Below are positions 2,695-39,199 of a stretch of 64,000 bases of DNA, piece after piece; positions within the stretch are counted from its first letter, which is position 1, and every line of letters starts with the position of its first letter. A model generated the notes under the pieces. The model had not been told where the DNA came from and made no database searches. It saw only the letters and a program-made list of their open reading frames with translations. The stretch lies in NCBI GenBank assembly GCA_024711295.1, contig JANJTB010000039.1, forward strand, positions 8,319 through 72,318, written 5' to 3'. A program made the position numbers and the translations under genes. The DNA comes from a bacterium. GTDB taxonomy: Bacteria; Bacteroidota; Ignavibacteria; Kapaibacteriales; UBA2268.

Positions 2695-4056
2695 ATGAAA
2701 TCGAATAAAGAAAATAAAATAATGAGAATCCCATTTATTGCCATCCTTGCTGCGTTTATGGTTGTAATACTTGCTTCATGCGAAATTGACTCAAGTATTA
2801 ATAATTCTCCCAATGCCATTAACGAAGAGAAAGTGAAATCTGTAGATGGAATAAATGGTTTAATGATTGGTATGCAAGTTGCCTGCGGCGATTTTTACTC
2901 AGGTGACAGATCAAGAATCGGCTCTATGTGGGCGCAGCAAATGTGTGCTCCCGAAGGTCTTGGACGTCCACAACCTGTAAGCTGGAATAACTATCAAATG
3001 CAGACTGACGGGTTTGTTGATGATATGTGGCTGCTTGGTTTCCGTGGTGTACGTTTGGCTAATGACGTTATTCGTTATGCACCGGACGTTAAGCTGGGAG
3101 ATCCTGCAGAAACTTATTCAAATGTTTATGTTGGTATAGCTAAAGTTTACAAAGCTTTGATGCTTGGTGAATTAGCTGCTTACTACGGTTCAATTCCGAT
3201 TGACATCCCACGCGATCTTACTCCTCCGCAGTTTGTTACTCAAGCTGCTGCTTATGATGAAGTTCAAAAACTTTTGACTGAAGCACTTGGTCATTTGGAA
3301 ACTTCTGCTACTGTAACTCGCGACCTTAATTTCCAAGGTAATGTTGATAAATGGAAACCTGTTATCCATTCTTTGAAGGCAAGATATTATCTGCATGTCA
3401 AGAACTATGCTCAAGCACTTTCTGAAGCTGAGCTTGGTGTTAATGACCCTACTGTGAAACTACTGTCATTCTACAATGAAACCGCAGGTGAGTATTCTCC
3501 TTGGGGACATTGGGCACTGACTGAAGTTGGACAGCCTTTGCGTGCTACAAATACTTTTGTTAACGCTCTCAAAACTACAGGCGATACTCGTTTGACTACT
3601 TATTTCAATCCTGATGCAAATGGTGATTTCTGGGGTTATGCTTACTTTGTTAAAGAAGGTGCAGACACTATGGAAACCAAAAACACTAATTTGGTTACTT
3701 TGAATAAGTATGGCAAGTATGGAGATGATTTCCCACTTATTTCTTACGAAGAAACTATGTTCATCAAAGCGGAAGCTAAACAGCGTACAAGTGGCTCGGG
3801 ACTTGCTGAGCTAAATGCTATGCGCGGTACTTTCGGTATTGGTGATTATTCAGGAACTGATGTTTTAGGTGAAATTCTAAAGCAAAAATTCCTCACTCTG
3901 TTTCTCGAAGGTCAGAGTTATACTGATATGAGAAGAAGTGGTACTTTGCCAAACGCTAATGTTCCTAAGAGATTCATCTATCCTCAGTCAGAAAAGAACG
4001 CTAATCCTAACGTTCCTGCTGATGGCGATGGTTTGGTAGGCGCTATTCTTCCATAA
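2695..4056 (+). CDS. SusD/RagB-family nutrient-binding outer-membrane lipoprotein
   Basis: Lipoprotein signal (…ILASCEIDSS) directly after a SusC-like gene, 8-nt gap. ~450 aa helical/TPR-like composition typical of SusD. AGAGG Shine-Dalgarno before the ATG at 2695, so the second Met is preferred over 2686. Confidence 0.8.
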   Translation: MKSNKENKIMRIPFIAILAAFMVVILASCEIDSSINNSPNAINEEKVKSVDGINGLMIGMQVACGDFYSGDRSRIGSMWAQQMCAPEGLGRPQPVSWNNYQMQTDGFVDDMWLLGFRGVRLANDVIRYAPDVKLGDPAETYSNVYVGIAKVYKALMLGELAAYYGSIPIDIPRDLTPPQFVTQAAAYDEVQKLLTEALGHLETSATVTRDLNFQGNVDKWKPVIHSLKARYYLHVKNYAQALSEAELGVNDPTVKLLSFYNETAGEYSPWGHWALTEVGQPLRATNTFVNALKTTGDTRLTTYFNPDANGDFWGYAYFVKEGADTMETKNTNLVTLNKYGKYGDDFPLISYEETMFIKAEAKQRTSGSGLAELNAMRGTFGIGDYSGTDVLGEILKQKFLTLFLEGQSYTDMRRSGTLPNANVPKRFIYPQSEKNANPNVPADGDGLVGAILP

Positions 4057-4079
4057 GATTCATCTGAATCATTACAAAG

Positions 4080-4115
4080 TGGGCCCGATTTATCGTCGGG
4101 TCCATTTTTGTTTTT
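4080..4115 (+). terminator. Rho-independent terminator after the SusD-like gene
   Basis: tgggcccga / tcgggtcca stem (9 bp, 1 mismatch), loop tttatcg, followed by tttttgttttt. Lies between convergent genes. Confidence 0.5.
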
Positions 4116-4572
4116 ACTCAGGATGTGAATATTGATTTTTCTCTAATTCTTCTCTGTCGTATTTTCCGAATGTAGCTTCCAAGCCTCTTATGAACTCCGC
4201 ACTTTCAGTTTCGGATAAAACTGCTTCACTGTGCATAATTGTATATATCCACATGGGCATTTCTCCTGTTTTGAACTCATGGGCTGACTTCACTCCATCA
4301 TCGGCAACATATTCAGAGATATTAAAATGCTCGCGCCCCTCCTTTACGTCATATTCTACAAGGAACGATACCGGAGGTATGTGGCTGTACCAGGGCCACT
4401 TTGTTTCATTGCTGTGACAATCGCCGCAGACACGCATAAATGTAGCTTTTGTTTCGGGTGAGTCCCAGTTTGGTGAATTTTTTACCGCGGGATTCTCGTG
4501 CTTTACGAGTATTAGCTGTAAAACAAACAAAATCGCAACTGCCGATAATCCGATAATATACTTCTTATTCAT
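4114..4572 (-). CDS. Small secreted/membrane-anchored haem-binding-domain protein (CxxCH)
   Basis: N-terminal hydrophobic anchor, then CGDCHS (CxxCH haem c attachment motif) and the ETKWPWY..VSFLVEYDVKEGREHFNISEY pattern of the 'haem-binding domain' family (PF14376-like). Confidence 0.55.
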   Translation of the reverse strand: MNKKYIIGLSAVAILFVLQLILVKHENPAVKNSPNWDSPETKATFMRVCGDCHSNETKWPWYSHIPPVSFLVEYDVKEGREHFNISEYVADDGVKSAHEFKTGEMPMWIYTIMHSEAVLSETESAEFIRGLEATFGKYDREELEKNQYSHPE

Positions 4573-4590
4573 ATATATATACTCCTACAA

Positions 4591-5391
4591 TTAAAATTCC
4601 AATACAATAGGGCAGTGATCAGAGCCCTCTACATCAGGAAGGTGATAGGAATTTTTGATATTATTCACCAGAGAGCCGTTAACAAAATGGTAGTCTATAC
4701 GCCAGCCCACATTATTCTCACGTGCACGCGCTCTGTTGCTCCACCATGTGTAATTATCCGGCTCCTTATTGAATATTCTGAATGTATCAACGTAGCCCTG
4801 CCGCTCTATGAAGTCAAGCTTCTCGCGCTCGACTGGCATAAATCCCGATGTCTCGATATTCTCCTTCGGGCGTGCCAAATCTATCTCGTGGTGAGCTGTA
4901 TTGTAGTCACCGCATACTATTATATTACGTCCATCTTTGCGATATGGTTCAAGGAAGGAGAATAATGCATCGTAAAACTCAAGTTTGTACTCTACGCGAT
5001 GCATTCCTGATGTTCCATTGGGGAAATATACATTAAAGAGTATGAAATCATCAAAATCTGTGGCTACAACTCGTCCCTCGATGTCGAATTTTTCCACCCC
5101 AATATCTGTGAAGCTGCTTTTTGCCTCCCTACGGGAATAAGTTACAACTCCGCTGTAGCCTTTCTTAGCTTTGGAATGATTGAAATAACCGCTATATCCC
5201 TCGGGATAGCGTAATTCGGGGAGTATTTGCTCTGCCTCTGCTTTGGTTTCCTGTATGCAAATTATGTCCGGTTGCTCTGATTCTATAAAATCAAACAGTT
5301 TGTTGTCTTTGGAAACTGTGTTAAATTTCTTCGATGGATTTTGCCCAAGTATCGAGCGGATGCCATTTACATTCCAAGATATTATTTTCAT
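4591..5391 (-). CDS. xth: Exodeoxyribonuclease III (AP endonuclease, ExoIII/APE1 family)
   Basis: MKIISWNVNGIRS N-terminus, ...QETK..., GDYN, and C-terminal SDHCP catalytic motifs of the EEP-fold ExoIII family. Full-length at 266 aa. Confidence 0.9.
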   Translation of the reverse strand: MKIISWNVNGIRSILGQNPSKKFNTVSKDNKLFDFIESEQPDIICIQETKAEAEQILPELRYPEGYSGYFNHSKAKKGYSGVVTYSRREAKSSFTDIGVEKFDIEGRVVATDFDDFILFNVYFPNGTSGMHRVEYKLEFYDALFSFLEPYRKDGRNIIVCGDYNTAHHEIDLARPKENIETSGFMPVEREKLDFIERQGYVDTFRIFNKEPDNYTWWSNRARARENNVGWRIDYHFVNGSLVNNIKNSYHLPDVEGSDHCPIVLEF

Positions 5392-5661
5392 ACTTAATTT
5401 ATATTTATTTATAACAAAACTTGCTTAACGAAAGATATACAATTTTGTTATCTTTGCTAAAGTTTTTAAATTATGTGACGATAAGAGATTAACAAAAAAT
5501 TCATCAATTTTTAACACTCAATTGCCGACTGAATATTATTTTTACTACATAGCTGTTTTTTTCTTGCTATTAACTTTATTTTTTATATATTTGAATAAGC
5601 ATAGAAAGGTAATGACAAATTGATTTTTTTATTAGGTAGTTAATATTGATAATATTGCTGG

Positions 5662-6735
5662 GTGTTAATATTGAGTAAGTTTTTGTTTTATATATGTTTA
5701 TCGCTTTTATGCTGTTTGACGGTTATTAGCTATGAAGCCAAATCTAATGTAATTGTCAACGAAAAGTCCCACAATTTTGCAGTTTTGTCGGTGAATACCG
5801 ATACTAAATTTTCGAAAGACATTCTGGTTATCTTGCGAGAAAAAAAATCTCCCCCACCTAAAATTAAAACAGACTATAAGTACAATTTTATACATAATCT
5901 TAACAATTTAGATTCATCTGCTATGGCGGGTGATGGCAACTACGTAATTTTCAACAAAGACTCCGAAACAAATATCCGAATCGAGTCACTGAAGCCCGAT
6001 ACCTATTATATCCTTGATACTTACAAAGCTTCGGGCAATTCAAAGATTGCCGAGAAAATTGCTTCGCTCGAGTTCACTACTCTGGCAGAGCAACCTCTGC
6101 GTCAGGTTCAGATGATTCTTTGGGCTGATGTTACAAAAAACAGCTTCAAGCTGTTATCCGAGGGGGCACAAAGCCAAAACGTTATGTATGTGGTAAGCAA
6201 GGGCGAAAACGATTTCGTTCCGGTTGATGCTACATCGTACAAGGCAAATGCCACTTTCGGAAAAGGTTTTGAAGCCGCTAACGGTGTCTATGTTGTTAAG
6301 TCTGATGCTGATACTTCAAAGATTTTTTCCGTAAACGGTTTAGAGCCGGGAACTGCTTATTACGTAAGGGCTTATGCTCTGAATGGTAAAGGGCAGTCTG
6401 TGAATTATCACGAAGAAGTGGTGAAAAAAAGAAATTCTGTTAAAATTATCACAAAACTCGAAACTCCTGTCATCAAAAGCTTTAATTGTCCTCAGACTGG
6501 GGCTTGCAGAGTGGAGTGGGCTAAAGTTAAAGGAGCTGATACTTATATCCTTGAGCTTTCGAATGATGACAAATTCGAAACTCTACACGAAATTTACAAC
6601 GCTCTCGATGTCGGTGATGTGGATTCTTATGTTTTTGACGAATTAGAGAGTAATCGTACTTACTTCATTAGAATCAAAGCGTTAGGCAAAGTTGCCGAAT
6701 CCGACTATTCTAATCATCTAAGTAAAAAACTGTAA
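5662..6735 (+). CDS. Hypothetical exported protein with fibronectin-III-like segments
   Basis: N-terminal hydrophobic signal/anchor. Repeated FN3-like signatures (LKPDTYYILDTYKASGNS; LEPGTAYYVRAYALNGKGQS; RTYFIRIKALGK). No recognisable enzymatic motif. Confidence 0.45.
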   Translation: MLILSKFLFYICLSLLCCLTVISYEAKSNVIVNEKSHNFAVLSVNTDTKFSKDILVILREKKSPPPKIKTDYKYNFIHNLNNLDSSAMAGDGNYVIFNKDSETNIRIESLKPDTYYILDTYKASGNSKIAEKIASLEFTTLAEQPLRQVQMILWADVTKNSFKLLSEGAQSQNVMYVVSKGENDFVPVDATSYKANATFGKGFEAANGVYVVKSDADTSKIFSVNGLEPGTAYYVRAYALNGKGQSVNYHEEVVKKRNSVKIITKLETPVIKSFNCPQTGACRVEWAKVKGADTYILELSNDDKFETLHEIYNALDVGDVDSYVFDELESNRTYFIRIKALGKVAESDYSNHLSKKL

Positions 6736-6905
6736 ATTTTTTTGCTTGTTTATTGTTTTTATTTATGTTATTTTCATAATGACATATTTTGCCGATTTTG
6801 AATTTCAATTTTCAAAATTGCATTTTTTGTTCTTTTAAAAACTTGTTTTGTATATGTGAAAAAACTAAGTAATTACTAATTGTTCTATTTTTTAAAGGTT
6901 TTATT

Positions 6906-9900
6906 ATGAAACGTTTTATCTCGTTTTTGATAGTGGGAGTGCTTGCTACTCTGCTTTCTATCAATGAGGTATTCGCTCTGCCACCTTCTACGCAGGCATA
7001 TAACGTTACGTTTACCACTTTGGCAAACGGAAAGTTAAGAGTCATTGCGACGAAGGGTAACGGAACACATCGTGCTATAGCGATTGAGCAAGGTGCTACT
7101 GTTACCGGCTTGCCATCCGGTACTTATACCGGCGATGCGGATTACTTGAATGCTCCTGACATAGATGGTGCCGGAGCTGGGCTTGCACGCATTGTATATT
7201 TTGGTACAGACAGAAGAGTGGATATCGAAAACCTCACACCGGGTACTCAATATACCGTTAAGGTATTTGAGTATAATGTTGACGGATATAATGTAGCCGA
7301 TGCTACAAATAACCCCCGGTCTTATACCACATTGCCGGCAGCACCTGCTTTAACAGCTGCTACCGCAATTACTTCTTCCGGCTTTACAATTAACTGGAAT
7401 GACCCTGCCGGTACTTGGGATGGATTCGAAATTACTGTCGGTCTGACAAGTAATTTCTCCTCTTGGGCAGCGGGTTGGAATCCATACAGTGTTGGAGCAG
7501 CTGTAAATTCTCAGGCATTTACAGGCAATACAAATACTACATATTTCTACAGAATAAGGTCAACACTTGGTAGTGCTCGCAGTGCTTGGAATACTGCGGC
7601 TACTTCTGTTACTACTTATCCTGTAACTGCTACATTAGCTGAAGCAAGTGGCGCAGTATGTTTGGGTAATTCCTACTATCTTACTCCAACCGGTCCAACT
7701 CCGGGTGATGGCACTAACGAACATAAATTTAAAGTTTATGATAGTGGCAATAACTTAGTTAATCTTGGTGGATTTGCATATACTGTAATTCCACTTACTC
7801 CTTTATCAGTTGGTACTTATACCTATACTGTTGCTACTGTAAGCAACAAAACAGGTGAAGAAACTCCTGAAAGGACTACATTTATATTATATGTTAATGA
7901 GCCCGGTACTACTGCTGTAGTTGGTGACATTGCTGATATTTGTGCACTTGGCACTTATACACTAACTCTTACAGGTATCCAACCTGTAAACGGCGAAGGT
8001 ACATGGACTTATTCAGGTCCTGAAGGTGCAATTATCGCTGATGATAATTTGTTCAACTCAGAAGTTGAATTAGTTAATTACGGTGTATATTCTTTCACAT
8101 GGACTATTACATCCGAAGGTTGTAATACTACTTCTGACGAAGTAACATTTAATTACTATGCTACTCCTGATCTTGCAGTTGCAGGCGATGATGACTACTA
8201 TTGTGGTCTCACTGGTTTGCTTGATGGTAATGATCCCGTAAACGGTGAAGGTACTTGGACTTATTCAGGTCCCGGCACTATAACTTTTGTTGACGATAAT
8301 CTTTATAATACAGAATTTACTGCATCAACCTATGGAATTTACACATTTACATGGACAATTGCAAACGGTACCTGTACTCCAAATTCTGATGAAGTTGTAT
8401 TAACAATAGACCAGGAACCTACCGAAGCTGTTGCTGGTGAAGATGATGGTATATGCGTACCGACAGGTACAACTACAATCACTTATACTTTAGCAGCTAC
8501 TCCTGTAACTGTTGGTTCAGGTGAATGGACTGCTGTAGGTGGAGCAACATTTGATGATGAAACAAGTCCAAATGCAGTTGTTACAGTTCCTACTGTTGGT
8601 ACTTATACATTGACTTGGACAACATATTCACCATATTATGATGATGAAAGTGAGTCATCATGTCAACCAAGTTCAAGTGAAGTAGTTTTAGTATTCAGCC
8701 CTGCTATTGACCAGGCTGAAATTAATGAAACTACTGTGCTTGAAAGCATTGAATGTGGTGATTTAGATGTTCAGTTAATAGCTAATGACCCTGCTGTAGG
8801 TAATGGCTTGTGGACTGTATCAGGTCCTCAGGGTGCAACATATGAACTCTTCTTCGAAGATTTCAGCGATGCAATCTTTGTTACCGATACTTATGGCACA
8901 TATACTTTAACTTGGACAATTTCTGACCCGAACGGTGTTTGCGAAGATACTTACGAAGCAATCACTTTTGAGTTGGCTCCTGTTCCTGACCCTGCCATTA
9001 TTCCTAACAAAACTGAAGTTAACTTTGCTTGTGGCAAAACTACTACTTTAGTTGCTCAAGAGGTTAATGTCGGTACTGGTACATGGACAGTTAATGAAGA
9101 AACAGCTCCCGAAGGTGCTCAATTCTCATTTACAACCAACATTAATGCCAATACAGTAACATTTGTCACTGATACTTATGGTGCTTACAACTTTACATGG
9201 ACTGTCGTAGGTTGTACTCCTAATAACTCTGACAATATCACTGTAACATTCTATAATGAAATGGCTGGTTGGACTGCAGGCGAAGACCAGACAGCATGTT
9301 TGGGTGTTGACTTACCTATGACAGGTTCTACTAATCCGACAGTTTATACTGAAGGTATTGGCAATCCTGTTCCTAATGGTGAGTGGATAAAGGTTTCCGG
9401 ACCTTTTGGTGTTGTTGACTTCACTCCTGACAGATTTACATATAATGCCACTGCAGATTTCCCTGCTATAGGTACTTATGTATTGGAATGGAGAGGTTAC
9501 AACGGTCCTTGCGTTGTTAGCGACACTAAAACTGTTGTTGTTGTTGAGTCCGAAGTTGTTACATTCAACGATTTAGAGTTCAGCTACTGTAACAATGAAT
9601 CAAACTTAACTGCTTCATTATCAGCTACACCAACAGGTGGTACTTTTAGTGGTTCAGGTGTTTCAGGTGATATATTTAGCCCATTCGGACTAAATGCAGG
9701 TACTTATACTTTAACATATACATACAATCAACCTGCAGGTTGTACTTTGTATGACTATGCTTCTGTTGTTGTTACTGCTCCTACTGTAATCACTTGGACT
9801 AATACTTATGAACTTTGTGAAAATGAAGGAATTAACTTAACTGAAGCTTCACCATCAGGTGGTGTTTATTCAGGTGATGGTATAATGGAAATTGGAGGTC

Positions 9901-12900
9901 AATATGGTATTTATCCTACAGGACCAGGTACATATACTATAACATATTCTTATGAAAATGTAGATGGTTGTACTTCGGTTGCGGAAAATACTTATGTTGT
10001 TTATCCTTTACCTGTAGTTTCATTTGATCCTGAAACTCCAACAATAGTTTGCCAAAACAGTGGTGTGATTGACTTTACTGAATTTGTTAGCCCAATGGGT
10101 GATGCGACTTGTGCTCAAAGTGACATCCTACAGCTAATTAATGATACTGAAGTTTATGCTTTTACTGTTTATGATGGTAGTACACTTAGTAATCAAAATT
10201 GTGGTACTTTTGATCCTAATTTTGAAGGACCGGGTACATACACAATCACTTACTATTATCGTGATGTGAATACTTGTATTAACACTGCTACTCACGTTAT
10301 TGAAGTTCAAGCTACACCAGATGTTTATTTTAATATTGGTAATGAAGAATATTGTGTGAATGACGACACAAATGTTGACTTGATGACTTATATCTCGAAT
10401 TATGATTTATGTACTGGTGGTACTTGGACATTCGGTGGACCAGGCGTTGACGCTCAGGCAGGCACATTCAATCCAAGTATGACCGGACTTACCGAGAGCG
10501 GACCTGTTACAATCAATTATACCTATGAATGCGGTTTTTGTACAGTTGAGGGTTATGCAGAAGTATTTATTGAAGTTCCGACAGCAATTGAATTCGGTGA
10601 TCCAATATTTGTATGTAATACTGCTGACGATATAGTACCATTAACTGGTTATGCAACGCCAACAGACGGTGAATTTATTGGCGAAGGTATTGTATTGGAA
10701 GAAGGTAATTACTCATTTGACCCATCATTGGTTCAACCGGGTATTCATACAATAACTTATACATACACTACATTTAAAAATGAGAGTGAAATTGTATTAT
10801 GTACAGTATCGTCAACATTCGAAATAGAAGTATATGCATTACCTGTTGTTGAGTTTGTAGAAGCTCCAACAATAGTTTGCGGTAATACAGATTACTTCTC
10901 ATTCGAAACTTACGTTTCACCAGAGCCAAACTGTATGCCGGTAGGTCACGAACAAGAAATCCCAGGCGGAAATGGTGAGTTTACATATAGCGGTGAGTTT
11001 GGCGGCTATTGTGGAGAATTTAACCCAAGTCAAGTTGGAGTTGGTACTTATACTGTAACATATACATATACTAATGAAAACAATTGTACAGACTTTGCAA
11101 CACACGAATTCGAAGTTGTTGCACCACCGGTAGTTACTTTCGATGGAGAAGGTACACCTACATTCTGTACTACATATTCAGATGGTATTGACCTTACTAT
11201 ATTTGCATCTCCGGTAGGTGGTACATTTAGTGGTTCGGGCGTGCAGGGCGACTTCTTTACACCTTCAAGTGTAGGCGTTGCAGGTACATACACATTAACT
11301 TATACAGTTACAGATCAACTAACAGGTTGTACAAACTTTGATGAAATGGAATTTGTATTAGTTGCTCCTACTCCTATCACATGGACAAACACTTACGAAG
11401 TATGTGCTAACGGTTCAGTTATTGAACTTTCAGGTGATGCGTTACCTGTAGGTGGTACTTACAGTGGTACAAATGTATCAGGTGGCAACTTTGACCCAAC
11501 AGGCTTGAGCGTAGGTCAATATACAATAACTTACACTTATGATAATGATTACTGCGTAACAACAGCAACTAAGATTGTTTATGTACGTCAAAATCCTGAT
11601 ATTTCATGGCCCGACTATCCAAACAATAACACATTCTGTGTACAAAGCACAAGTGTAGATATCAGAAATGCAACACCATCAGGTGGTTCATTCACTATCA
11701 TACCTAACCTTGGTCTTGAAATCACAGGTAACCCATTCGACCCATCAGCGGTTGGTGTCGGTACATACACACTTACTTATACCTATATCAATGTATTTGG
11801 TTGTGTTGATGTCGAAACTAAAGTTATCAGCATTATTGATGAGCCAACTTCAGTTGCATTCAGCAATCCTGAAGGTTCATTCTGTAATGATGATGAAACA
11901 GGTTTTGATTTGACAACTTTGGCAAGCCCTGCCGGCGGTACATTCGCAGGCGCAGGTGTTGAAGGCACTACATTTAGCCCATTTGGATTAAATGCAGGAA
12001 CTTATACATTGACATACTCATTAACTCATGCATGTGGCGATTATTTCGATACAGCAGAGTTTATCGTAGTTGCTCCTGCAACAATAGTATGGGAACTTAA
12101 CACAGCAACAGTATGCGCAACAGAAACATCATTTGATATCGGTGGCGCTACCCCTACAGGTGGTACTTACAACGGTGGTTCAATCATTCTTGACGGAACT
12201 ACATTCAACCCATCTACAGCAAGTGTTGGTCTTCATGTATTTACATACACTTATGTTGATGGTCCTTGCGAATCAGTAGCAACATTAGAAGTAGAAGTTG
12301 TTCCTGCTCCGGTTGTAACATGGACACAAACATTTGCAGATTACTATTGTGCTAATGACAATAGTGGAATCGCTCTTACAGGCGCTCCTGCAAACGGTCA
12401 GTACACAGTAGAACCATCTACAAATGCACTGTCATTAGGTACATTTACTCCTTCAATGGCAGAAGCCGGTACTTACACAATTACTTATACAGTAACAATC
12501 GGCTCATGTTCTGACTATGCAACTCAGACAATCGTTGTAGCTCCACTTCCTGAAGTATCAGCAGGCGTTTATGAAAATGTTTGTATAACAGCTTCTTCAT
12601 TCACACTTACAGCAGGTACACCTGAAGGTGGCAATTACTCAGGTAACGGTGTATTATCAAATGTATTCAACCCGGCTTCTGCAGGCGTTGGTATCCATAC
12701 ATTGACATATACATACCAAGATCCTGTAACATTGTGCTACAACAGTGCAACAACTACAATTCAGGTAGATGAACAACCAGTTATCTCCTGGACAGCAACA
12801 TACGGTCCATACTGCGAAAGTGACGAGTCAACTTATCAATTCAATGCTCAGGCATCAATTGGTATCGGCGAGTACTCAGGTCCTGGTGTTGATGGTGGAT

Positions 12901-15203
12901 ACTTCTCACCAAGCTTAGTAGGTGCAGGTACTTACACAGTTACTTACACAGTTACTAACGGTACATGTATGGCTTACGAAACTAAGACAATCGTAGTTGA
13001 TGAGCAACCAGTTATCTCCTGGACAGCTACATACGGTCCATACTGTGAAAGTGATGAAAATTCATACGAACTTTCAGCTTATCATACAGTAGGATTCGGC
13101 GAGTACTTAGGTGCAGGTGTATCCGGTGGATACTTCTATCCTGGCGAAGCGGGTGCAGGTACACACGTAATTACTTACACAGTAACTAACGGTACATGCT
13201 CAGTTTACGAAACTAAGACAATCGTAGTTGACGCGCAACCAGTTATTTCCTGGACAGCTACATACGGTCCATACTGCGAAAGTGACGAGTCAATGTATCA
13301 ATTCAATGCTCAGGCATCAATTGGTACTGGCGAGTACACAGGTACAGGCGTATCCGGTGGATACTTCTCACCAAGCGTAGCAGGTGCAGGTACTTACACA
13401 GTTACTTACACAGTAACTAACGGTACATGTATGGCTTACGAAACTAAGACAATCGTAGTTGACGAGCAACCAGTTATTTCCTGGACAGCTACATACGGTC
13501 CATACTGTATTGACGACACCGATGGTTATACTCTTGGTGCATCAGCAACAGTAGGCATTGGAGCATATTCAGGAAATGGCGGAGTATCAGGTGGTACATT
13601 CACTCCAAGTATTGCGGGTGTTGGTACTCATACCATTACTTACACAGTAACTAATGGTACATGCTCTGATTACGAAACTAAGACAATCGTTGTTAATCCA
13701 TTACCAACAGTAAGTGCAGGAACTTATGCTGCAGTTTGTCAAAACACAGCAACATTCACACTTACAGCAGGTACACCTTCCGGTGGTACTTACTCAGGTA
13801 ACGGCGTAGTATCGAATACATTCAACCCGGCTTCTGCAGGCGTTGGTGTACATACATTAACTTACGTTTACACAGATGAAGCAACAGGTTGTACAAACTC
13901 TGCAACAACAACAATCACTGTAAATGCTCTAATTACAGCAAATGCAGGTGCAGATGATGATGCAGAACCGAACGAACTTACATTTACATTGAACGCGAAT
14001 GTTCCTACTCCTGGCACTGGTTTGTGGACAGTTGTTTCTAGCCCTGCTAACTCAAATGTTAACTTTACCGATGCAACACTCTACAACACATTCGTTGAAG
14101 TAGATAAGTCAGGTGATTACACATTCCGTTGGACAATTACAAATGGTGCTTGTTCAAGCTTTGATGATGTAGTAATTAGCTTTGATGCCGGTGCAGTACC
14201 AACTAAATTGGCATTCAACTTTATACCTACACAGGTATCAGGACAAACATTCAGTCTTAATGTAAGAGTTCTCGACCAAAACGACAACATGATTAATACT
14301 CCAAATGCTGTTACATTTACAGTTACAGTTTATGAAGGTGATGCTACATTCTCAAGTACAGTTACAGGTGTTATTGCTGCAAATACAAGCAATAAGTCAG
14401 TTTCAGTTACTTTGAATGCAGATAATCCTAACGTAGGTGCAGCTGATATTCAATTGTTGGCAACAGACGACGCTAACTTACTTGAAGATGGATTCAGCAA
14501 TTGGTTTAACCTTGTTGCTACAATACCAACAACACAAGCTTCAAGTCTTACAATAGTCAGAGGTAGTACTTCATTTGATCTATCATGGTTAAGAGGTAAC
14601 GGTGACGGTGTAATCGTACTTGCTCAGAAGAGTGCATTCACAGTTGCAAATAATCAACCTCAACAGGGTATTTCATATAATAACGAATCTAACTATGGTG
14701 TGGCTGGTAATCTTGTTACAACCGGTATTTATGCAACTTACAGCGGCACAGGTACATCATTCACTTTGGGTAACCTACAAAATGACGGTGTTCGTTATGC
14801 TGTTAAAGTTATGGAATATAAGAGCAGTGGTGTATTGAGATCATACAACCGTACAAATGCTGCAAGTAATTCAAACAACCGTTCTTCAACTACATTGAAG
14901 GGTGGCGTAAATGAGGAATTACCATTTGTTGGTGAAAATATCTTAAGTTCATCATTCATTACTCCTAACCCTGCACGTGACTATATCTCTCTTACAGTTG
15001 ACCTTACTCAGGAAGCTGAATTGAGAATAGCTGTTTACACTGCAGATGGTAAAGAAGTATTGTTACCTGTTAACAACCTCAACTACAACTCAGGTCGTCA
15101 TAACTTCAATATACCGCTTAAGGGCTTGGCAGCAGGTGTTTACTCTGTTGTAATCACTACCGGTAACGAACTTATCATGGACAACGTTGTGGTAATGCCA
15201 TAA
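6906..15203 (+). CDS. Giant (2765 aa) cell-surface adhesin-like protein. It has a signal peptide, FN3-like N- and C-terminal modules, ~30 tandem SprB/Ig-like ~80-aa repeats, and a T9SS C-terminal sorting domain.
   Basis: Signal peptide MKRFISFLIVGVLATLLSINEVFA. FN3-like motifs (NLTPGTQYTVKVFEYNVDGYN at the N-terminus; GVRYAVKVMEYKSSG near the C-terminus). Dozens of repeats carrying GTYT(L/I)TYTY...C signatures reminiscent of SprB/PKD-like Ig repeats. C-terminus ...ITPNPARDYISLTVDL...GVYSVVITTGNELIMDNVVVMP is typical of a type-A T9SS CTD. Confidence 0.85.
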   Translation: MKRFISFLIVGVLATLLSINEVFALPPSTQAYNVTFTTLANGKLRVIATKGNGTHRAIAIEQGATVTGLPSGTYTGDADYLNAPDIDGAGAGLARIVYFGTDRRVDIENLTPGTQYTVKVFEYNVDGYNVADATNNPRSYTTLPAAPALTAATAITSSGFTINWNDPAGTWDGFEITVGLTSNFSSWAAGWNPYSVGAAVNSQAFTGNTNTTYFYRIRSTLGSARSAWNTAATSVTTYPVTATLAEASGAVCLGNSYYLTPTGPTPGDGTNEHKFKVYDSGNNLVNLGGFAYTVIPLTPLSVGTYTYTVATVSNKTGEETPERTTFILYVNEPGTTAVVGDIADICALGTYTLTLTGIQPVNGEGTWTYSGPEGAIIADDNLFNSEVELVNYGVYSFTWTITSEGCNTTSDEVTFNYYATPDLAVAGDDDYYCGLTGLLDGNDPVNGEGTWTYSGPGTITFVDDNLYNTEFTASTYGIYTFTWTIANGTCTPNSDEVVLTIDQEPTEAVAGEDDGICVPTGTTTITYTLAATPVTVGSGEWTAVGGATFDDETSPNAVVTVPTVGTYTLTWTTYSPYYDDESESSCQPSSSEVVLVFSPAIDQAEINETTVLESIECGDLDVQLIANDPAVGNGLWTVSGPQGATYELFFEDFSDAIFVTDTYGTYTLTWTISDPNGVCEDTYEAITFELAPVPDPAIIPNKTEVNFACGKTTTLVAQEVNVGTGTWTVNEETAPEGAQFSFTTNINANTVTFVTDTYGAYNFTWTVVGCTPNNSDNITVTFYNEMAGWTAGEDQTACLGVDLPMTGSTNPTVYTEGIGNPVPNGEWIKVSGPFGVVDFTPDRFTYNATADFPAIGTYVLEWRGYNGPCVVSDTKTVVVVESEVVTFNDLEFSYCNNESNLTASLSATPTGGTFSGSGVSGDIFSPFGLNAGTYTLTYTYNQPAGCTLYDYASVVVTAPTVITWTNTYELCENEGINLTEASPSGGVYSGDGIMEIGGQYGIYPTGPGTYTITYSYENVDGCTSVAENTYVVYPLPVVSFDPETPTIVCQNSGVIDFTEFVSPMGDATCAQSDILQLINDTEVYAFTVYDGSTLSNQNCGTFDPNFEGPGTYTITYYYRDVNTCINTATHVIEVQATPDVYFNIGNEEYCVNDDTNVDLMTYISNYDLCTGGTWTFGGPGVDAQAGTFNPSMTGLTESGPVTINYTYECGFCTVEGYAEVFIEVPTAIEFGDPIFVCNTADDIVPLTGYATPTDGEFIGEGIVLEEGNYSFDPSLVQPGIHTITYTYTTFKNESEIVLCTVSSTFEIEVYALPVVEFVEAPTIVCGNTDYFSFETYVSPEPNCMPVGHEQEIPGGNGEFTYSGEFGGYCGEFNPSQVGVGTYTVTYTYTNENNCTDFATHEFEVVAPPVVTFDGEGTPTFCTTYSDGIDLTIFASPVGGTFSGSGVQGDFFTPSSVGVAGTYTLTYTVTDQLTGCTNFDEMEFVLVAPTPITWTNTYEVCANGSVIELSGDALPVGGTYSGTNVSGGNFDPTGLSVGQYTITYTYDNDYCVTTATKIVYVRQNPDISWPDYPNNNTFCVQSTSVDIRNATPSGGSFTIIPNLGLEITGNPFDPSAVGVGTYTLTYTYINVFGCVDVETKVISIIDEPTSVAFSNPEGSFCNDDETGFDLTTLASPAGGTFAGAGVEGTTFSPFGLNAGTYTLTYSLTHACGDYFDTAEFIVVAPATIVWELNTATVCATETSFDIGGATPTGGTYNGGSIILDGTTFNPSTASVGLHVFTYTYVDGPCESVATLEVEVVPAPVVTWTQTFADYYCANDNSGIALTGAPANGQYTVEPSTNALSLGTFTPSMAEAGTYTITYTVTIGSCSDYATQTIVVAPLPEVSAGVYENVCITASSFTLTAGTPEGGNYSGNGVLSNVFNPASAGVGIHTLTYTYQDPVTLCYNSATTTIQVDEQPVISWTATYGPYCESDESTYQFNAQASIGIGEYSGPGVDGGYFSPSLVGAGTYTVTYTVTNGTCMAYETKTIVVDEQPVISWTATYGPYCESDENSYELSAYHTVGFGEYLGAGVSGGYFYPGEAGAGTHVITYTVTNGTCSVYETKTIVVDAQPVISWTATYGPYCESDESMYQFNAQASIGTGEYTGTGVSGGYFSPSVAGAGTYTVTYTVTNGTCMAYETKTIVVDEQPVISWTATYGPYCIDDTDGYTLGASATVGIGAYSGNGGVSGGTFTPSIAGVGTHTITYTVTNGTCSDYETKTIVVNPLPTVSAGTYAAVCQNTATFTLTAGTPSGGTYSGNGVVSNTFNPASAGVGVHTLTYVYTDEATGCTNSATTTITVNALITANAGADDDAEPNELTFTLNANVPTPGTGLWTVVSSPANSNVNFTDATLYNTFVEVDKSGDYTFRWTITNGACSSFDDVVISFDAGAVPTKLAFNFIPTQVSGQTFSLNVRVLDQNDNMINTPNAVTFTVTVYEGDATFSSTVTGVIAANTSNKSVSVTLNADNPNVGAADIQLLATDDANLLEDGFSNWFNLVATIPTTQASSLTIVRGSTSFDLSWLRGNGDGVIVLAQKSAFTVANNQPQQGISYNNESNYGVAGNLVTTGIYATYSGTGTSFTLGNLQNDGVRYAVKVMEYKSSGVLRSYNRTNAASNSNNRSSTTLKGGVNEELPFVGENILSSSFITPNPARDYISLTVDLTQEAELRIAVYTADGKEVLLPVNNLNYNSGRHNFNIPLKGLAAGVYSVVITTGNELIMDNVVVMP
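12765..13695 (+). repeat. Four in-frame tandem copies of a 231-nt (77-aa) unit inside the giant adhesin gene. Copies 1 and 3 are ~90% identical at DNA level, with >100-nt near-identical stretches at the copy boundaries.
   Basis: Copies begin near 12768, 12998, 13228 and 13458 (gatgaRcaaccagttatYtcctggacagcNacatacggtccatactg...). The protein repeat is VDEQPVISWTATYGPYCESDE...GAGTYTVTYTVTNGTCMAYETKTIVV. Flanking ~70-aa blocks at 12541-12760 and 13690-13910 are also related (APLPEVSAG... / NPLPTVSAG...). Confidence 0.85.
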
Positions 15204-15240: not shown

Positions 15241-15281
15241 GCGGGCTTTACTCATTGAGTAGAGCCCGCTTTTATTTTTGG
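15241..15281 (+). terminator. Rho-independent terminator after the giant adhesin gene
   Basis: gcgggctttactc / gagtagagcccgc stem (13 bp, 1 mismatch), 3-nt loop, followed by ttttatttttgg. Confidence 0.55.
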
Positions 15282-15347
15282 GAAAATCAAATAAAAAAAA
15301 GTTATAATATTCTATAACTTTTGAATTATTCATATATAAAAATTCTT

Positions 15348-16934
15348 ATGATGAAGAAAATCACTTTTATCATAGCTCTCTTTATTTGCTTTATCTCCTT
15401 TGCTTACTCAAGTGATAAGGATAAATTAATCGAGTTTCAGGCACAGAAATTTAAGTATATGCTCGAGGTTGCAAGTCAGAATTATCCGGATTCTCTTGAT
15501 ATAACTGCTATCAGTGATAAAGCTTTTGCTGCATTAATGCAGGCAGTTGACAAGGAATCTTTCTATTACAACAAACCAAACATGAAACTTGTCACAGAAA
15601 GCAATAAAGGTGTAAGCTACGGAATAGGTGCGGAGCTGGTCAGTGTAAGGGATTCACTTTATATTATTCAGATATTCCCTAATACACCTGCGTACGAAGC
15701 AAATCTTGAAGTAGGAGATATAGTATTGTCTGTTGACGGCAGGTCAACATTAAAGATGATGAAAGTTGATGCAGATAAACTTGTATCCGGAGACTCAGCC
15801 ACGAGCGTAACTCTGGAAATAAAGAATGTAATAAGCGAAAAAATAAGAAAAGTAAAGCTTATCCGAAAAGATGTACCCAACAGAAGCTTGACTACAGCAT
15901 ATTTTTATCCGAAGTCTGATATAGGTATTTTTGTTCTGAACAGATTTTCAGCAAAGGCCGCTGAGGAATTTCGACAGAAAGCAGAATTGTTTATAAGTCT
16001 AGGAATGAAACGACTAATTATTGATGTCAGGAATAATCCTGGTGGTTTCATGGTGATGGTAGATGAGATACTTGATATGCTGATTTCCGGTAACAGATTA
16101 TTGACAAAAGTAGTTTCTGGGAATAAAGAGTTTAACTCGGAAGTTTACTCGATGAATGGTGGGTTTCTCGAAAAAATTCCTGTTGTTGTGATTGTCGACG
16201 AGAACTCTGCATCAGGTAGTGAATTGTTGGCAGGTGTTGTACAGGATTACGACCGTGGAATAGTTGTTGGTAAAAGGTCTTACGGCAAAGGTTCAATCCA
16301 AAGGATATGGTCTATGAACGACTCTACAGGATTTAAGCTAACCGTAGGTAAATATTTAACTCCATCAGGCAGAGATATTCAGAAGAAAGCCGGAGAAAAT
16401 ATATCAATAGAGCCAACACTTGACACAAATATTAAGTTTGATGATATTCAAAATCAGATTAACAAATTAGGAGGTATTGCTGAAGTAAAAATATATAAAT
16501 CTACTTCAGGAAGACCGATTATCGGTGGGGGAGGAGTAACTCCTGATTATTTTGTAGATGCAGATACTCTTACTCAGTTAACCAATTTGTTGATTCGAAA
16601 AGGACTTTATTTTGAGTGGGCAATAAGCTACAAAAAAAAGCATGGAAAAGAACTAAAAGAAAAATATGGCAATGATTATTCGAAATTTAATTTAGATTTT
16701 CAGATTAATGATGAAATGTTGCGAGAATTTGCTAATTTTGCACTTCAAAATAAGGTATGGAATAATGAAATGTTTACGGCAGACAAATCTTATTTCATAA
16801 ATTATATGAAAGCGAGCATAGCAAATGTAATTTGGGGATATGATGCATTTTCGGAAGTTATGTGTATCGTGGATAAGCAAATTACAGCAGCAATAAAAAA
16901 GTTACCCGAAGCAGAACAAATGATTTACAAATAA
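15348..16934 (+). CDS. ctp: S41-family C-terminal processing peptidase (tail-specific protease) with a PDZ domain
   Basis: Signal/anchor KKITFIIALFICFISFA. PDZ-like GDIVLSVDG. S41 motifs IIDVRNNPGG, ...ENSASGSELLAG, RSYGKGSIQ (catalytic Ser/Lys regions). ATG at 15348 is preferred over the upstream in-frame Met at 15321. Confidence 0.85.
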   Translation: MMKKITFIIALFICFISFAYSSDKDKLIEFQAQKFKYMLEVASQNYPDSLDITAISDKAFAALMQAVDKESFYYNKPNMKLVTESNKGVSYGIGAELVSVRDSLYIIQIFPNTPAYEANLEVGDIVLSVDGRSTLKMMKVDADKLVSGDSATSVTLEIKNVISEKIRKVKLIRKDVPNRSLTTAYFYPKSDIGIFVLNRFSAKAAEEFRQKAELFISLGMKRLIIDVRNNPGGFMVMVDEILDMLISGNRLLTKVVSGNKEFNSEVYSMNGGFLEKIPVVVIVDENSASGSELLAGVVQDYDRGIVVGKRSYGKGSIQRIWSMNDSTGFKLTVGKYLTPSGRDIQKKAGENISIEPTLDTNIKFDDIQNQINKLGGIAEVKIYKSTSGRPIIGGGGVTPDYFVDADTLTQLTNLLIRKGLYFEWAISYKKKHGKELKEKYGNDYSKFNLDFQINDEMLREFANFALQNKVWNNEMFTADKSYFINYMKASIANVIWGYDAFSEVMCIVDKQITAAIKKLPEAEQMIYK

Positions 16935-16953
16935 AGATATTTTGGAGAATATA

Positions 16954-17796
16954 ATGAGTACAACAAAAAAAATTATATTATGGGTTGCAGCAATTGTTTT
17001 AATGGTAGTCATAGTGATATATCAGCGAGCAACTGGCCCGACATACCCGCAAAAAGGTTCAATGGAACTTAGTGGATCGGAGATAAATTATAAATTGCTT
17101 CGGTCCCACGAAATAGGAATGAATGCACCTGTAGAGGTTGTTGCTCCTGATAAAGCGGTTATTGGCAAAATTAAAATTAAAAGGTATAAAAGCCATGATG
17201 AATGGTCAGAACTTGATATGATTCGCGAAGGTGATTTGTTGAAATCTGAACTTCCTGAGCAGTTGCCTGCAGGTAAAGTAATGTACCACATTTTTGTTGG
17301 CAAGGATGATAATAACTTAACAGCACTTACCCCTGAGCCTATAGTTCTAAGATACAAAGGTGTTGTACCGTTATGGATTTTGTACCCTCACATTGGATTT
17401 ATGATTTTATCATTTGCTTTTGCTATGCGTGTTGCTTTGGAAGCTGCATTCAAAGGCAGTGAGGTGCTAAAAATGTCTTATATTACATTGGGATTATTTG
17501 CATTTGGTGGATTAGTTCTCGGACCATTGGTACAGTGGTACGCATTTGGTGCTTTTTGGACTGGTTGGCCATTTGGAAAAACTATCTTACATTTTGGTGA
17601 TTTGACTGATAACAAAACACTTGCTTCAATTTTAATCTGGATATTTGCAATTATTCGTATCAAAAAGCATCCTAATCAAACATGGTGGGCTTGGTTGGCT
17701 ACACTTGTAATGATAGCAGTATATCTTATCCCGCATAGCATGTTAGGCTCGGAAATTGATTTCAGAGAAGTTGAAGCTCAAACAGGAGTAAACTAA
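16954..17796 (+). CDS. Integral membrane protein of unknown function, with an N-terminal anchor, a ~130-aa extracytoplasmic segment and a multi-pass C-terminal region
   Basis: GGAG Shine-Dalgarno 7 nt before the ATG at 16954 (MSTTKKIILWVAAIVLMVVIVIY). Several hydrophobic helices in the C-terminal half. 19-nt gap from ctp and 2-nt gap to the next gene suggest an operon. Confidence 0.5.
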   Translation: MSTTKKIILWVAAIVLMVVIVIYQRATGPTYPQKGSMELSGSEINYKLLRSHEIGMNAPVEVVAPDKAVIGKIKIKRYKSHDEWSELDMIREGDLLKSELPEQLPAGKVMYHIFVGKDDNNLTALTPEPIVLRYKGVVPLWILYPHIGFMILSFAFAMRVALEAAFKGSEVLKMSYITLGLFAFGGLVLGPLVQWYAFGAFWTGWPFGKTILHFGDLTDNKTLASILIWIFAIIRIKKHPNQTWWAWLATLVMIAVYLIPHSMLGSEIDFREVEAQTGVN

Positions 17797-17798
17797 TA

Positions 17799-18941
17799 AT
17801 GGAATTCTTCAAATATTATAATCCAACCAGAATAATTTTCGGTAAAAATACTATTTCTGAAATTGGAGAATACATCAAAGAGTATGGATATAATAAAGTA
17901 CTTATTCTATATGGTGGCGGCTCAATTTTTAGTAATGGAGTATATTCTGAAGTGTCAAAGTCCTTGCAACTCAATGATATTATTTCTGTCGAATTCGGGG
18001 GAGTACAGCCAAATCCTACTCTCGATCATGCAAGAGCAGCAATCAGAATTATTAAGGATAATAATATACAGGCAATTTTAGCTGTTGGAGGTGGTTCTGT
18101 AATTGATGAGGCTAAATCTATTGCTGCAGGTTGTTATGTTGATGATGTTTGGAATATCTTTGAGAAAACTGAATCAGTAAAGAAAGCTTTACCTTTATTT
18201 ACCGTTCTGACATTATCTGCAACCGGTACCGAAATGAATTCATTTGCAGTATTGTCTAATACTGAACAAAAGAAGAAATGGGCGTTTGGATCACCATTCT
18301 CATATCCACTTGTATCAATCATTGATCCTCAGGTTCAGATGACGCTCCCATGGCGTCAGACTGTGAATGGTGGTGTGGATGCTTTATCTCATATTATGGA
18401 ATTGTATTTCGCCGGTGATTCGGCAGAGGCAACACTTTCTATCAATGAAGCGCTTATGCGAACTGTAATCAAGTCAGTTGACGAACTTCAAAAGGACCCA
18501 AATGATTATGATTCAAGAGCAAATCTTGCATGGTCAGCTTCTCTGGCTCTTTCTGGATTAACTGCTGTCGGGATGAATGGTGGTGAGTGGAGCGTACACA
18601 GAATTGAACATTCAATAAGTGCTTATTACCCAAATGTTGCTCACGCCGAAGGTTTAGCTGTAATTTTTCCGGCATGGATGAAATACGTTAATAAACAAAA
18701 CTCAGAAAGATTTGAAAGATGGGCTAAGAATGTTTTTGGAGTAGATTCAATAAATGAAGGAATTGATGCCTTGATAAATACATTCAAAAGGTGGGGTGCT
18801 CCTACATCACTTGCCGATCTCAATGTACCATCTGAAATGATCGAACAAATCGCTCAAAATTCAATGCTTCTTGGAATAGTTGGGAATAAACATAAAATCG
18901 ATCTTGATGCCTCCAGAAGTATTCTTAACCTTGCATTATAA
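17799..18941 (+). CDS. Iron-containing (group III) alcohol dehydrogenase family protein
   Basis: Fe-ADH signatures: ILYGGGS, GGGSVIDEAKSIAAG (NAD(P)-binding GGGS motif). Conserved His-rich metal site region (...HIMELYF..., EWSVHRIEHS). Confidence 0.85.
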   Translation: MEFFKYYNPTRIIFGKNTISEIGEYIKEYGYNKVLILYGGGSIFSNGVYSEVSKSLQLNDIISVEFGGVQPNPTLDHARAAIRIIKDNNIQAILAVGGGSVIDEAKSIAAGCYVDDVWNIFEKTESVKKALPLFTVLTLSATGTEMNSFAVLSNTEQKKKWAFGSPFSYPLVSIIDPQVQMTLPWRQTVNGGVDALSHIMELYFAGDSAEATLSINEALMRTVIKSVDELQKDPNDYDSRANLAWSASLALSGLTAVGMNGGEWSVHRIEHSISAYYPNVAHAEGLAVIFPAWMKYVNKQNSERFERWAKNVFGVDSINEGIDALINTFKRWGAPTSLADLNVPSEMIEQIAQNSMLLGIVGNKHKIDLDASRSILNLAL

Positions 18942-30469: not shown

Positions 30470-30627
30470 CTTCCTGAAAAATATTTGAAGAATATCAAAA
30501 GTGTTGTATTTGTAAAGGTACAACACTTTTTTTATAAAGAACTGTACATCTTTGGTAACAAAAAGCTGAAAATATTGTTTTTCTTGTAAAAAAGTGTTAA
30601 ATTAGTGAATTATTGTGGGGAATAGAT

Positions 30628-38939: not shown

Positions 38940-39199
38940 AATGAAAAGCTCCGGAAAATCTGAAAAATGTTACTTGATACTAAATAATATTATAACTTAG
39001 ACAAATAAATTTACTTTTAATTGCATTTAAATTTATTTTATTTACATAGGAAATTGAATAATTGTAAAAAGCAGATGTAATAAAGCACAAAAGAAATATA
39101 ATCTTTATAAAAAAGTTAATTATTTCGTAATTTTGTAATTCAGATTGAATTAAAAAAAAGAAAATAATTAATTGATATATTTAGAATTGGAGTTTGTTT

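Follow-up and report, generated by a model that had tools for sequence, protein, structure and literature searches.

A giant type IX secretion cargo of a Kapaibacterium-like bacterium, built of tandem Ig-like units and probably forming a disulfide-stapled surface fibril

RESULTS

A giant gene encodes a T9SS cargo protein with FN3 modules at both ends

The stretch analysed here, 64,000 nucleotides of contig JANJTB010000039.1 from a Kapaibacteriales bacterium (Bacteroidota; assembly GCA_024711295.1) and referred to below as the window, contains at positions 6906..15203 of the + strand an uninterrupted open reading frame (ORF) for a product of 2765 amino acids (aa), which we call the giant protein. 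An original prediction had described a single 8.3-kb gene for a protein with a signal peptide, FN3-like modules at both ends and a type IX secretion system (T9SS) C-terminal sorting domain (CTD) of type A, and these features are borne out below, the exact coordinates of the gene included. The giant protein is rich in Thr (15%), Gly (10%) and Tyr (6%) and contains 56 Cys in total. Its mature form (∼281 kDa) is very acidic, with a pI of 4.05 and 288 Asp and Glu against 54 Lys and Arg residues, and has a Ser and Thr content of 22%. Curated Pfam and NCBIfam models recognise two features only, the type A CTD and, marginally, an N-terminal fn3 domain. The ∼2,100 central residues match none of these models, and the same scans found no catalytic or known ligand-binding domain in the giant protein.

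The N-terminus, MKRFISFLIVGVLATLLSINEVFA|LP, appears by eye to be a Sec signal peptide (aa 1–24; 6906..6977, + strand as are all parts of the gene), with MKR, a hydrophobic core and the putative cleavage site VFA|LP; its DNA is 98% identical in a divergent allele of the gene, found in the genome L003 and described below. The part that follows, the distal tip (6978..7631), consists of two tandem FN3 modules, one of aa 25–145 with a loop insertion and one of aa 146–242. Pfam fn3 (PF00041) scores the N-terminus of the whole protein only marginally (25.6 bits, cut-off 25) and finds the second module with E = 5.9e-4. A profile built from the first 394 aa of five orthologues finds solved FN3 modules of fibronectin, titin and integrin beta4 (pairs in fibronectin and integrin beta4; best E = 1e-13), and this match spans both modules of the tip.

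At the other end, the repeat array is followed by a beta-sandwich-like module of ∼105 aa (aa 2433–2537; 14202..14516) that is kept in the orthologues and gives only weak matches, to Invasin_D3 (E = 0.015) and to the DEX1 beta-sandwich (E = 0.0098). Behind it lie a proximal FN3 module, again with a loop insertion (aa 2538–2665), and a linker (aa 2666–2684; both within 14517..14957). Over 128 aa, the proximal module shares 28% identity with the first of the N-terminal FN3 modules; the window's own copy has no Pfam match, and three of the four orthologous copies score as fn3 (best E = 7.7e-6). The linker motif E-[ED]-L-P-[LF]-V-G-[DE]-N is invariant among the orthologues. The CTD occupies aa 2685–2765 (14958..15203, stop codon included) and is recognised over aa 2685–2763 by two models for type A domains, PF18962 (34.2 bits against a cut-off of 27) and TIGR04183 (30.1 bits against 23). 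Neither model of the type B CTD (PF13585 CHU_C, TIGR04131) matches the giant protein.

Twenty-five Ig-like units and a degenerate first unit form the central array

Four near-identical units served as the seed for a hidden Markov model (HMM) of the repeat unit, which was then refined in iterations over the giant protein's own sequence. With this unit HMM, 25 tandem Ig-like units tile aa 334–2432 with a period of 76–102 aa, and one degenerate unit precedes them. The original prediction of ∼30 tandem ∼80-aa repeats was therefore right about tandem, Cys-containing, beta-sandwich units and needs correction in number, to 25–26 units of 76–102 aa. Regular units share the hairpin motif G-x-[YH]-T-x-T-[YW]-T and have two near-invariant Cys, at profile positions 13 (C1) and 66 (C2). 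Two subtypes can be told apart, A-type at array positions 1–6 and 25 and B-type at positions 7–24.

The array opens with the degenerate unit, Ig0 (aa 243–333; 7632..7904), a weak match to the unit HMM that carries C1 only (C252); a single Cys before the array is found in all four full-length orthologues, the window protein included. Six A-type units follow (aa 334–882; 7905..9551; G-x-G-x-W-T ... T-W-T ... C), then eighteen B-type units (aa 883–2342; 9552..13931; GG-x-[FY]-S-G-x-G-V ... F-x-P ... G-T-Y-T-x-T-Y-T ... C) and a terminal A-type unit with C2 only (C2416; aa 2343–2432; 13932..14201), a pattern that recurs in all four full-length orthologues. Within the B-type block, Tandem Repeats Finder reports a recent tandem duplication at 12774..13713 with a 231-nt unit and a 462-nt, two-unit period (81% matches), and the units of aa 1958–2034 and 2112–2188 are nearly identical.

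The giant protein was also scanned for the Bacteroidota O-glycosylation sequon D-[ST]-[AILVMT]. It has one copy where 13.1 ± 3.3 are expected, and across the giant protein and its orthologues P0001–P0004 there are 0–2 copies against 10–13 expected. We dropped this candidate since control motifs are equally dispersed (z by lead residue: G −3.1, T −3.5, W +7.2, Y +4.1); the depletion is no specific evidence because the shuffle null is over-dispersed for a repeat protein.

The repeat is an abundant Ig-like domain that Pfam models poorly

To place the repeat, 24 units singly and the whole protein were run against Pfam. The nearest curated models are PF16403 (Bact_surface_Ig-like), the HYR families (PF02494, PF23237) and PF22352 (K319L-like PKD), all of which stay below their cut-offs here. 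PF16403 scores 14.4 bits on the whole protein (cut-off 27) and matches six of the 24 units (best E = 0.0086), and Big_9 is sub-threshold in four units. A-type units weakly match PF22352 (4 of 24, best E = 0.03), PKD_4 reaches E = 0.068 in one unit, and no PKD model (PF00801, PF18911, PF22352) exceeds its gathering score. HYR (PF02494) likewise falls below its gathering score in the one unit that it matches (E = 0.0068) and does not match the whole protein. The likeness to PKD or HYR repeats that had been proposed thus comes down to sub-threshold matches on single units. For the SprB repeat (PF13573), the other proposed relative, neither the whole protein (E ≤ 0.1) nor any of the 24 single units (E ≤ 1) gives a match. 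The matches of B-type units to PF16403 and HYR cover the last hairpin of these models. In richer carriers of the repeat the summed PF16403 score passes its cut-off, through profile positions 43–71 (the last hairpin) only, so that Pfam sees just the final hairpin of the unit, as PF16403 or HYR-like.

Among solved structures, the unit profile matches GhpA of Aureispira (E = 1.5e-19, over many stretches of its stem) and Anabaena All3314 (E = 2.4e-13). The whole giant protein matches GhpA alone among solved proteins (phmmer 2.9e-45). This match is confined to the repeat region of GhpA, all significant alignments lying within GhpA residues 3815–5723, and the A-type block (aa 334–882) is the part of the giant protein that best matches GhpA residues 4669–5723. 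All3314 (PDB 7b5h) comes from another phylum and has no T9SS CTD; its residues 915–1259 hold four B-type-like units (GG-x-F ... F-N-P-S ... Y-T ... G-C), which shows that the domain also occurs outside Bacteroidota and in proteins other than T9SS cargo.

We modelled three B-type units with AlphaFold2 (AF2); the alignment comprised 29 segments of three units each, taken from the giant protein and the orthologues. The model (predicted local distance difference test (pLDDT) 96.2, predicted template modelling score (pTM) 0.80) has three Ig-like sandwiches, each closing in a long beta-hairpin. A Foldseek search of the PDB returned generic multi-Ig proteins at similar E-values. The best three-domain superposition was with GhpA fragments (9flx, TMq 0.56, root mean square deviation (rmsd) 6.9; 9fly, TMq 0.44), which are 17–19% identical and have the lowest rmsd among the Foldseek matches.

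When 1.84 billion representative proteins were searched with the unit profile, 21,354 carried it at E ≤ 1e-3. At E ≤ 1e-30 there were 3,424, and a single protein can have as many as 75 units. By these profile matches the repeat is an abundant Ig-like domain poorly modelled by Pfam, and neither the distinct family that had been proposed nor a SprB repeat. The full unit with its two conserved Cys is modelled by no Pfam or NCBIfam entry.

Cysteine bookkeeping and correlated loss point to disulfides between neighbouring units

In the window protein and the three other full-length orthologues, interior units hold two or four Cys each. Pairing C1 of one unit with C2 of the next, C1(i)–C2(i+1), yields 25 staples, which together with three loop pairs cover all 56 Cys and use the single Cys of Ig0 and of the last unit, while pairing within units leaves two conserved orphan Cys.

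If the two Cys are partners across units, they should be lost together. We examined 245 non-orthologous proteins of the family with ∼5,300 adjacent unit pairs. Units without C1 were, with a strong bias, followed by units without C2 (odds ratio 933, phi 0.67, p = 8e-58). Joint losses of C1(i) and C2(i+1) numbered 30 and were spread over 16 proteins. C1 and C2 of the same unit were lost independently (phi 0.012, p = 0.28), as were control positions in units i and i+2 (phi 0.018). C1(i) and C2(i+1) do not lie in one domain because they are more than one repeat period apart. An earlier version of the test on stringent HMM matches had no power, nearly all units having both Cys. At array ends, 19 last units lacked only C1 and 4 lacked only C2 (p = 0.0026), which is the asymmetry that the pairing predicts. 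First units did not show it (14 versus 13), and a probable reason is that the HMM misses degenerate units at the start of arrays.

The same arrangement has been seen in GhpA, where cryo-EM revealed disulfides between neighbouring Ig-like domains, among them Cys2988–Cys3140 (bioRxiv 10.1101/2024.01.29.577165). In the coordinates of the unit HMM these two residues correspond to the C1 of one unit and the C2 of the following one. Together, these data indicate that each Ig unit of the giant protein is probably disulfide-stapled to the next. Given the staples and the high pTM of the three-unit model, the array would therefore be a stiff rod held by covalent staples, not a flexible string of beads.

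Orthologues share the architecture and differ in the number of B-type units

The proteins nearest to the giant protein come from metagenome-assembled genomes (MAGs) of Candidatus Kapaibacterium and Kapabacteria (Bacteroidota, Kapaibacteriaceae), and its orthologues were found in Kapaibacterium-like MAGs only. P0001 is 76% identical to the giant protein, and P0002–P0004 are 43–49% identical over the aligned regions. The C-terminal module is carried by two of 185,579 species-representative genomes. The architecture is common to all orthologues. The original prediction had suggested a comparison of their lengths; the unit counts are 25, at least 24, 21, 17 and 15, and the difference lies entirely in the B-type block (18, 18, 14, 10 and 8 units). 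An apparent shortfall of ∼400 aa in P0001 is due to a frameshifted gene call in its MAG.

The tip and distal array belong to a divergent allelic cassette

Positions 1–22053 of the window are colinear with the Kapaibacterium MAG L003 (GCA_054685795.1, 500-kb contig BAAFTP010000052.1), and all flanking genes and spacers are 97–100% identical. Within the giant gene, DNA identity is only 69–86% over an allelic cassette that starts just behind the signal peptide (aa 27 to ∼1660; 6984..11885), and beyond ∼aa 1660 it is back at 96–99%. The cassette has a synonymous divergence (dS) of 0.575, a non-synonymous divergence (dN) of 0.240 and a dN/dS of 0.42, compared with a dS of 0.030 in aa 1651–2370. Synonymous divergence is thus about twenty times background, while the frame stays open, the unit count is unchanged and purifying selection is kept. 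The window allele was recovered with 100% identity over positions 3211–12827 (9.6 kb, both junctions included) in L016, a Logan assembly of the metagenome run SRR19748635. These data indicate that the cassette is probably an old allele, brought by homologous recombination or kept by balancing selection.

The data do not point to a burst of adaptive change, there being no excess of non-synonymous change, and we rejected a diversity-generating retroelement as the origin of the cassette, since synonymous sites are equally diverged (dS 0.58) and no reverse transcriptase lies within the window. No third allele appeared in a close-relative scan of genome contigs or in two scans of metagenome contigs, and exact-protein look-ups returned the same allele only; this negative means little, as metagenome assemblies usually break giant genes up and the protein index appears to lack partial products. 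A protein search with the tip alone gave zero matches although P0001–P0004 must match, and is no evidence of absence. In L003 (544–3775 and 8001–16167), four gene calls make up susC, and the giant gene is broken into two, with products of 2370 and 368 aa. The many broken genes of this MAG suggest indel-type sequencing errors, so that protein lengths taken from L003 are not trustworthy.

The giant gene lies in a conserved gene order

The conserved order of genes is a small FN3 protein, the giant protein, an S41/PDZ peptidase and a multi-pass membrane protein of ∼280 aa. From the giant gene onward, this synteny is kept in three species, down to 44% identity. The original prediction had called the gene the dominant accessory feature of the window. 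This description does not fit its conserved setting in three Kapaibacterium-like genomes; it is the distal two-thirds of the gene that vary. Fe-ADH comes next after the membrane protein in two of the three species, and genes farther upstream differ. No PorP-, PorE- or SprF-like gene lies beside the giant gene, its neighbours being the genes for the FN3 protein, the S41 peptidase, the multi-pass membrane protein and Fe-ADH.

The upstream gene (5662..6735, + strand), a conserved neighbour for which FN3 motifs had been predicted, encodes a protein of 357 aa with three FN3-like modules (fn3, 44.5 bits), a signal peptide and no CTD. L001 (40% identity), L003 and L016 each have an orthologue immediately upstream of the giant gene and are the only loci in which this gene is visible, as the contig of the third species, L004, ends inside the giant gene. 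The L001 protein has a clear cleavable signal peptide. The 170-nt spacer between the small FN3 gene and the giant gene contains no terminator-like site. An intrinsic terminator with a 13-bp stem (8 G-C pairs) followed by TTTTATTTTT stands right after the giant gene (15241..15279, + strand). A scan for sigma-70 promoters gave 44 sites against 43.9 expected, hence no excess. We claim no functional link to the downstream S41 peptidase, as synteny is kept but a strong terminator separates the two genes.

The multi-pass membrane protein (16942–17796, + strand) has 284 aa and no Pfam match, is 74–75% identical in two other species and always stands 3′ of the S41 peptidase downstream of the giant gene. 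Compared with L001, the S41 peptidase, the membrane protein and Fe-ADH (15321–18941) are 61–74% identical, and the small FN3 protein (40%) and the giant protein (40–48%) are the fastest-evolving members of the conserved block.

Other T9SS cargo in the window

At least three other proteins of the window carry a type A CTD, namely a 1292-aa FN3/Ig_Rha78A_N protein (26591–30469, +), an S8 subtilase with BNR/sortilin repeats (39194–42589, +) and a 735-aa protein with HYDIN/ASH-type Ig domains (57393–59600, −). L001 also encodes more CTD-bearing proteins. The other CTD-bearing cargo in the window suggests an active T9SS. Two further large proteins with ASH/HYDIN/DUF1573-type Ig domains (30613–34848, +; 59665–62010, −), one with BNR repeats and the other with an Omp28 domain, have no CTD match at E ≤ 1e-5. 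The G+C content is 0.37–0.43 in the first 16 kb (susC/susD and the giant gene) and 0.31–0.36 in most of the remainder; the higher G+C of the giant gene at least partly reflects its Thr/Gly-rich composition.

DISCUSSION

We consider it probable that the giant gene encodes a cell-surface fibril of Kapaibacterium-like Bacteroidota, most likely an adhesin, in which a T9SS-exported, stapled Ig rod carries an FN3 tip. The protein would be exported by Sec through its N-terminal signal peptide. In the periplasm, its 26 Ig-like domains would fold and acquire 25 C1(i)–C2(i+1) staples and three loop disulfides. The type A CTD would then be recognised by the T9SS and its PorV shuttle and removed, and the new C-terminus would be attached to the outer surface; this handling follows from established T9SS biology, the CTD itself having been found. 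Type A CTDs are handled by the PorV shuttle (PMC12618676), and type A cargo of Porphyromonas gingivalis is described as attached to anionic lipopolysaccharide (A-LPS) in PMC8545088. At ∼4 nm per domain, the result may be a stiff rod of ∼100 nm that holds the FN3-FN3 tip off the cell for a putative ligand. Between species, the length of the rod would change as B-type units (8 to 18) are gained or lost. Within a species, the tip and the distal ∼15 units would exist as old divergent alleles swapped by homologous recombination, and the signal peptide, proximal rod and CTD would be conserved, presumably through constraints of secretion and anchoring. In this reading, the best-supported one, the distal part would be under diversifying population-level dynamics.

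Several points weigh against this picture. The role as an adhesin is a prediction. The AF2 model of the tip (aa 27–420, from a five-sequence alignment) has a pLDDT of 58.5 and a pTM of 0.37, which is too poor for a fold search, and the staples are deduced from Cys bookkeeping and family-wide correlated loss. No T9SS machinery gene (SprA/Sov, PorV, PorU and others) lies within the 64-kb window, and for type A cargo in particular both release and anchoring are possible. Furthermore, only two alleles are known, one of them from a MAG rich in frameshifts.

The closest solved relative is GhpA (Aureispira sp. CCB-QB1, 5,898 aa; PDB 9flp, fragments 9flx and 9fly; bioRxiv 10.1101/2024.01.29.577165). 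Both are T9SS cargo with a Sec signal peptide, their N-terminus distal and their C-terminus proximal, and in both a long stretch consists of homologous Ig-like units that contain Cys, with disulfides between domains, predicted in the giant protein. One may therefore ask whether the giant protein is itself a GhpA-type grappling hook, whose copies bundle into a hollow multistranded stem that catches cells or flagella. The homology of its units to those of the GhpA stem and base, the superposition in which GhpA fragments fit best and the common disulfide scheme speak for this, but we find it improbable. The similarity to GhpA is confined to the repeats, and where GhpA has an adhesin-like hook module of ∼1,400 aa at its N-terminus (residues 26–1402), the giant protein has FN3-FN3. 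Its length is below half that of GhpA, and it has 26 Ig units where GhpA has 52. The GhpA locus has ghpB and ghpC, which are PorP- and PorE-like, whereas no such genes follow the giant gene, which is succeeded by those for the S41 peptidase, the membrane protein and Fe-ADH. The CTD of the giant protein is type A and that of GhpA is PorP-dependent, GhpA being cited as type B, PorP-anchored cargo in PMC12998431. The GhpA stem is a hollow heptamer, and a like assembly of the giant protein would be hypothetical. An SprB-type mobile adhesin, moved along the cell surface by the gliding motor, is a very improbable alternative. SprB of Flavobacterium johnsoniae is, like the giant protein, a giant repetitive surface filament exported by the T9SS in Bacteroidota, a general resemblance; the giant protein (2,765 versus 6,497 aa) has neither PF13573 repeats in the whole protein or any scanned unit, nor a type B CTD, nor an adjacent sprF- or PorP-like gene, and the window contains no gld genes. 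We found no support for the gliding role and the SprB-like identity of the original prediction. On these comparisons, the giant protein appears to work like the GhpA stem, is not a GhpA orthologue and is not a member of the SprB family.

It is also conceivable, if rather unlikely, that the giant protein is a released scaffold of the matrix or biofilm, or a coat protein, and that its distal variability reflects escape from phages or grazers and not ligand specificity. T9SS substrates go either into the environment or onto the surface (PMC12618676). The acidity and the Ser and Thr content of the mature protein, the lack of a catalytic or known ligand-binding domain in the scans and a cassette without non-synonymous excess (dN/dS about 0.4) would all suit such a role. 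The polarity of conservation, with a conserved CTD-proximal third and a variable distal part, suits a C-terminally attached molecule better, and the strict conservation of the linker before the CTD argues in the same direction. That the cassette is an assembly artefact, a chimeric MAG contig, we regard as quite improbable, more so even than the hook. The frameshifted genes of L003, with the giant gene and susC in pieces, would make one suspect it. Both junctions, however, lie inside one 500-kb contig with 97–100% identical DNA on either side, and the separate assembly L016 reproduces the window allele exactly across both. The divergent segment also keeps its open frame, unit count and purifying selection, and if the assembly had collapsed a 'bubble' here, the two alleles would still both have to exist between the identical flanks.

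A bolder form of the stapled-fibril reading can be put forward as speculation, which we think doubtful. The giant protein might represent a second design of a grappling-hook-like appendage, a GhpA-type stapled rod, possibly multistranded, that has a small exchangeable FN3 tip cassette where GhpA has a hook, and type A (PorV and lipopolysaccharide) anchoring where GhpA uses PorP/PorE; recombining distal alleles would set strain-specific recognition of targets or partners, and the staple would be a general rule of construction for more than 20,000 giant proteins with this domain.

As an overall type, giant adhesin-like T9SS fibrils are already known; what is added here is the staple rule and the allelic cassette. 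The analysis connects an Ig-like repeat that is very common (more than 21,000 representative proteins) and left unmodelled by Pfam with its sole solved example, the GhpA stem, and the sequence-based statistics for stapling help to predict which giant 'beads-on-a-string' proteins are stiff rods. It also suggests that in the little-studied Kapaibacteriaceae a rod of the GhpA type can go together with a type A CTD and a small tip of FN3 modules. The replacement of the distal two-thirds between strains that are ∼99% identical elsewhere would be a clean natural case of cassette-like exchange in a surface fibril, and the cassette may be tracked in metagenomic time series to find the agent that selects it, be it phages, grazers or attachment targets.

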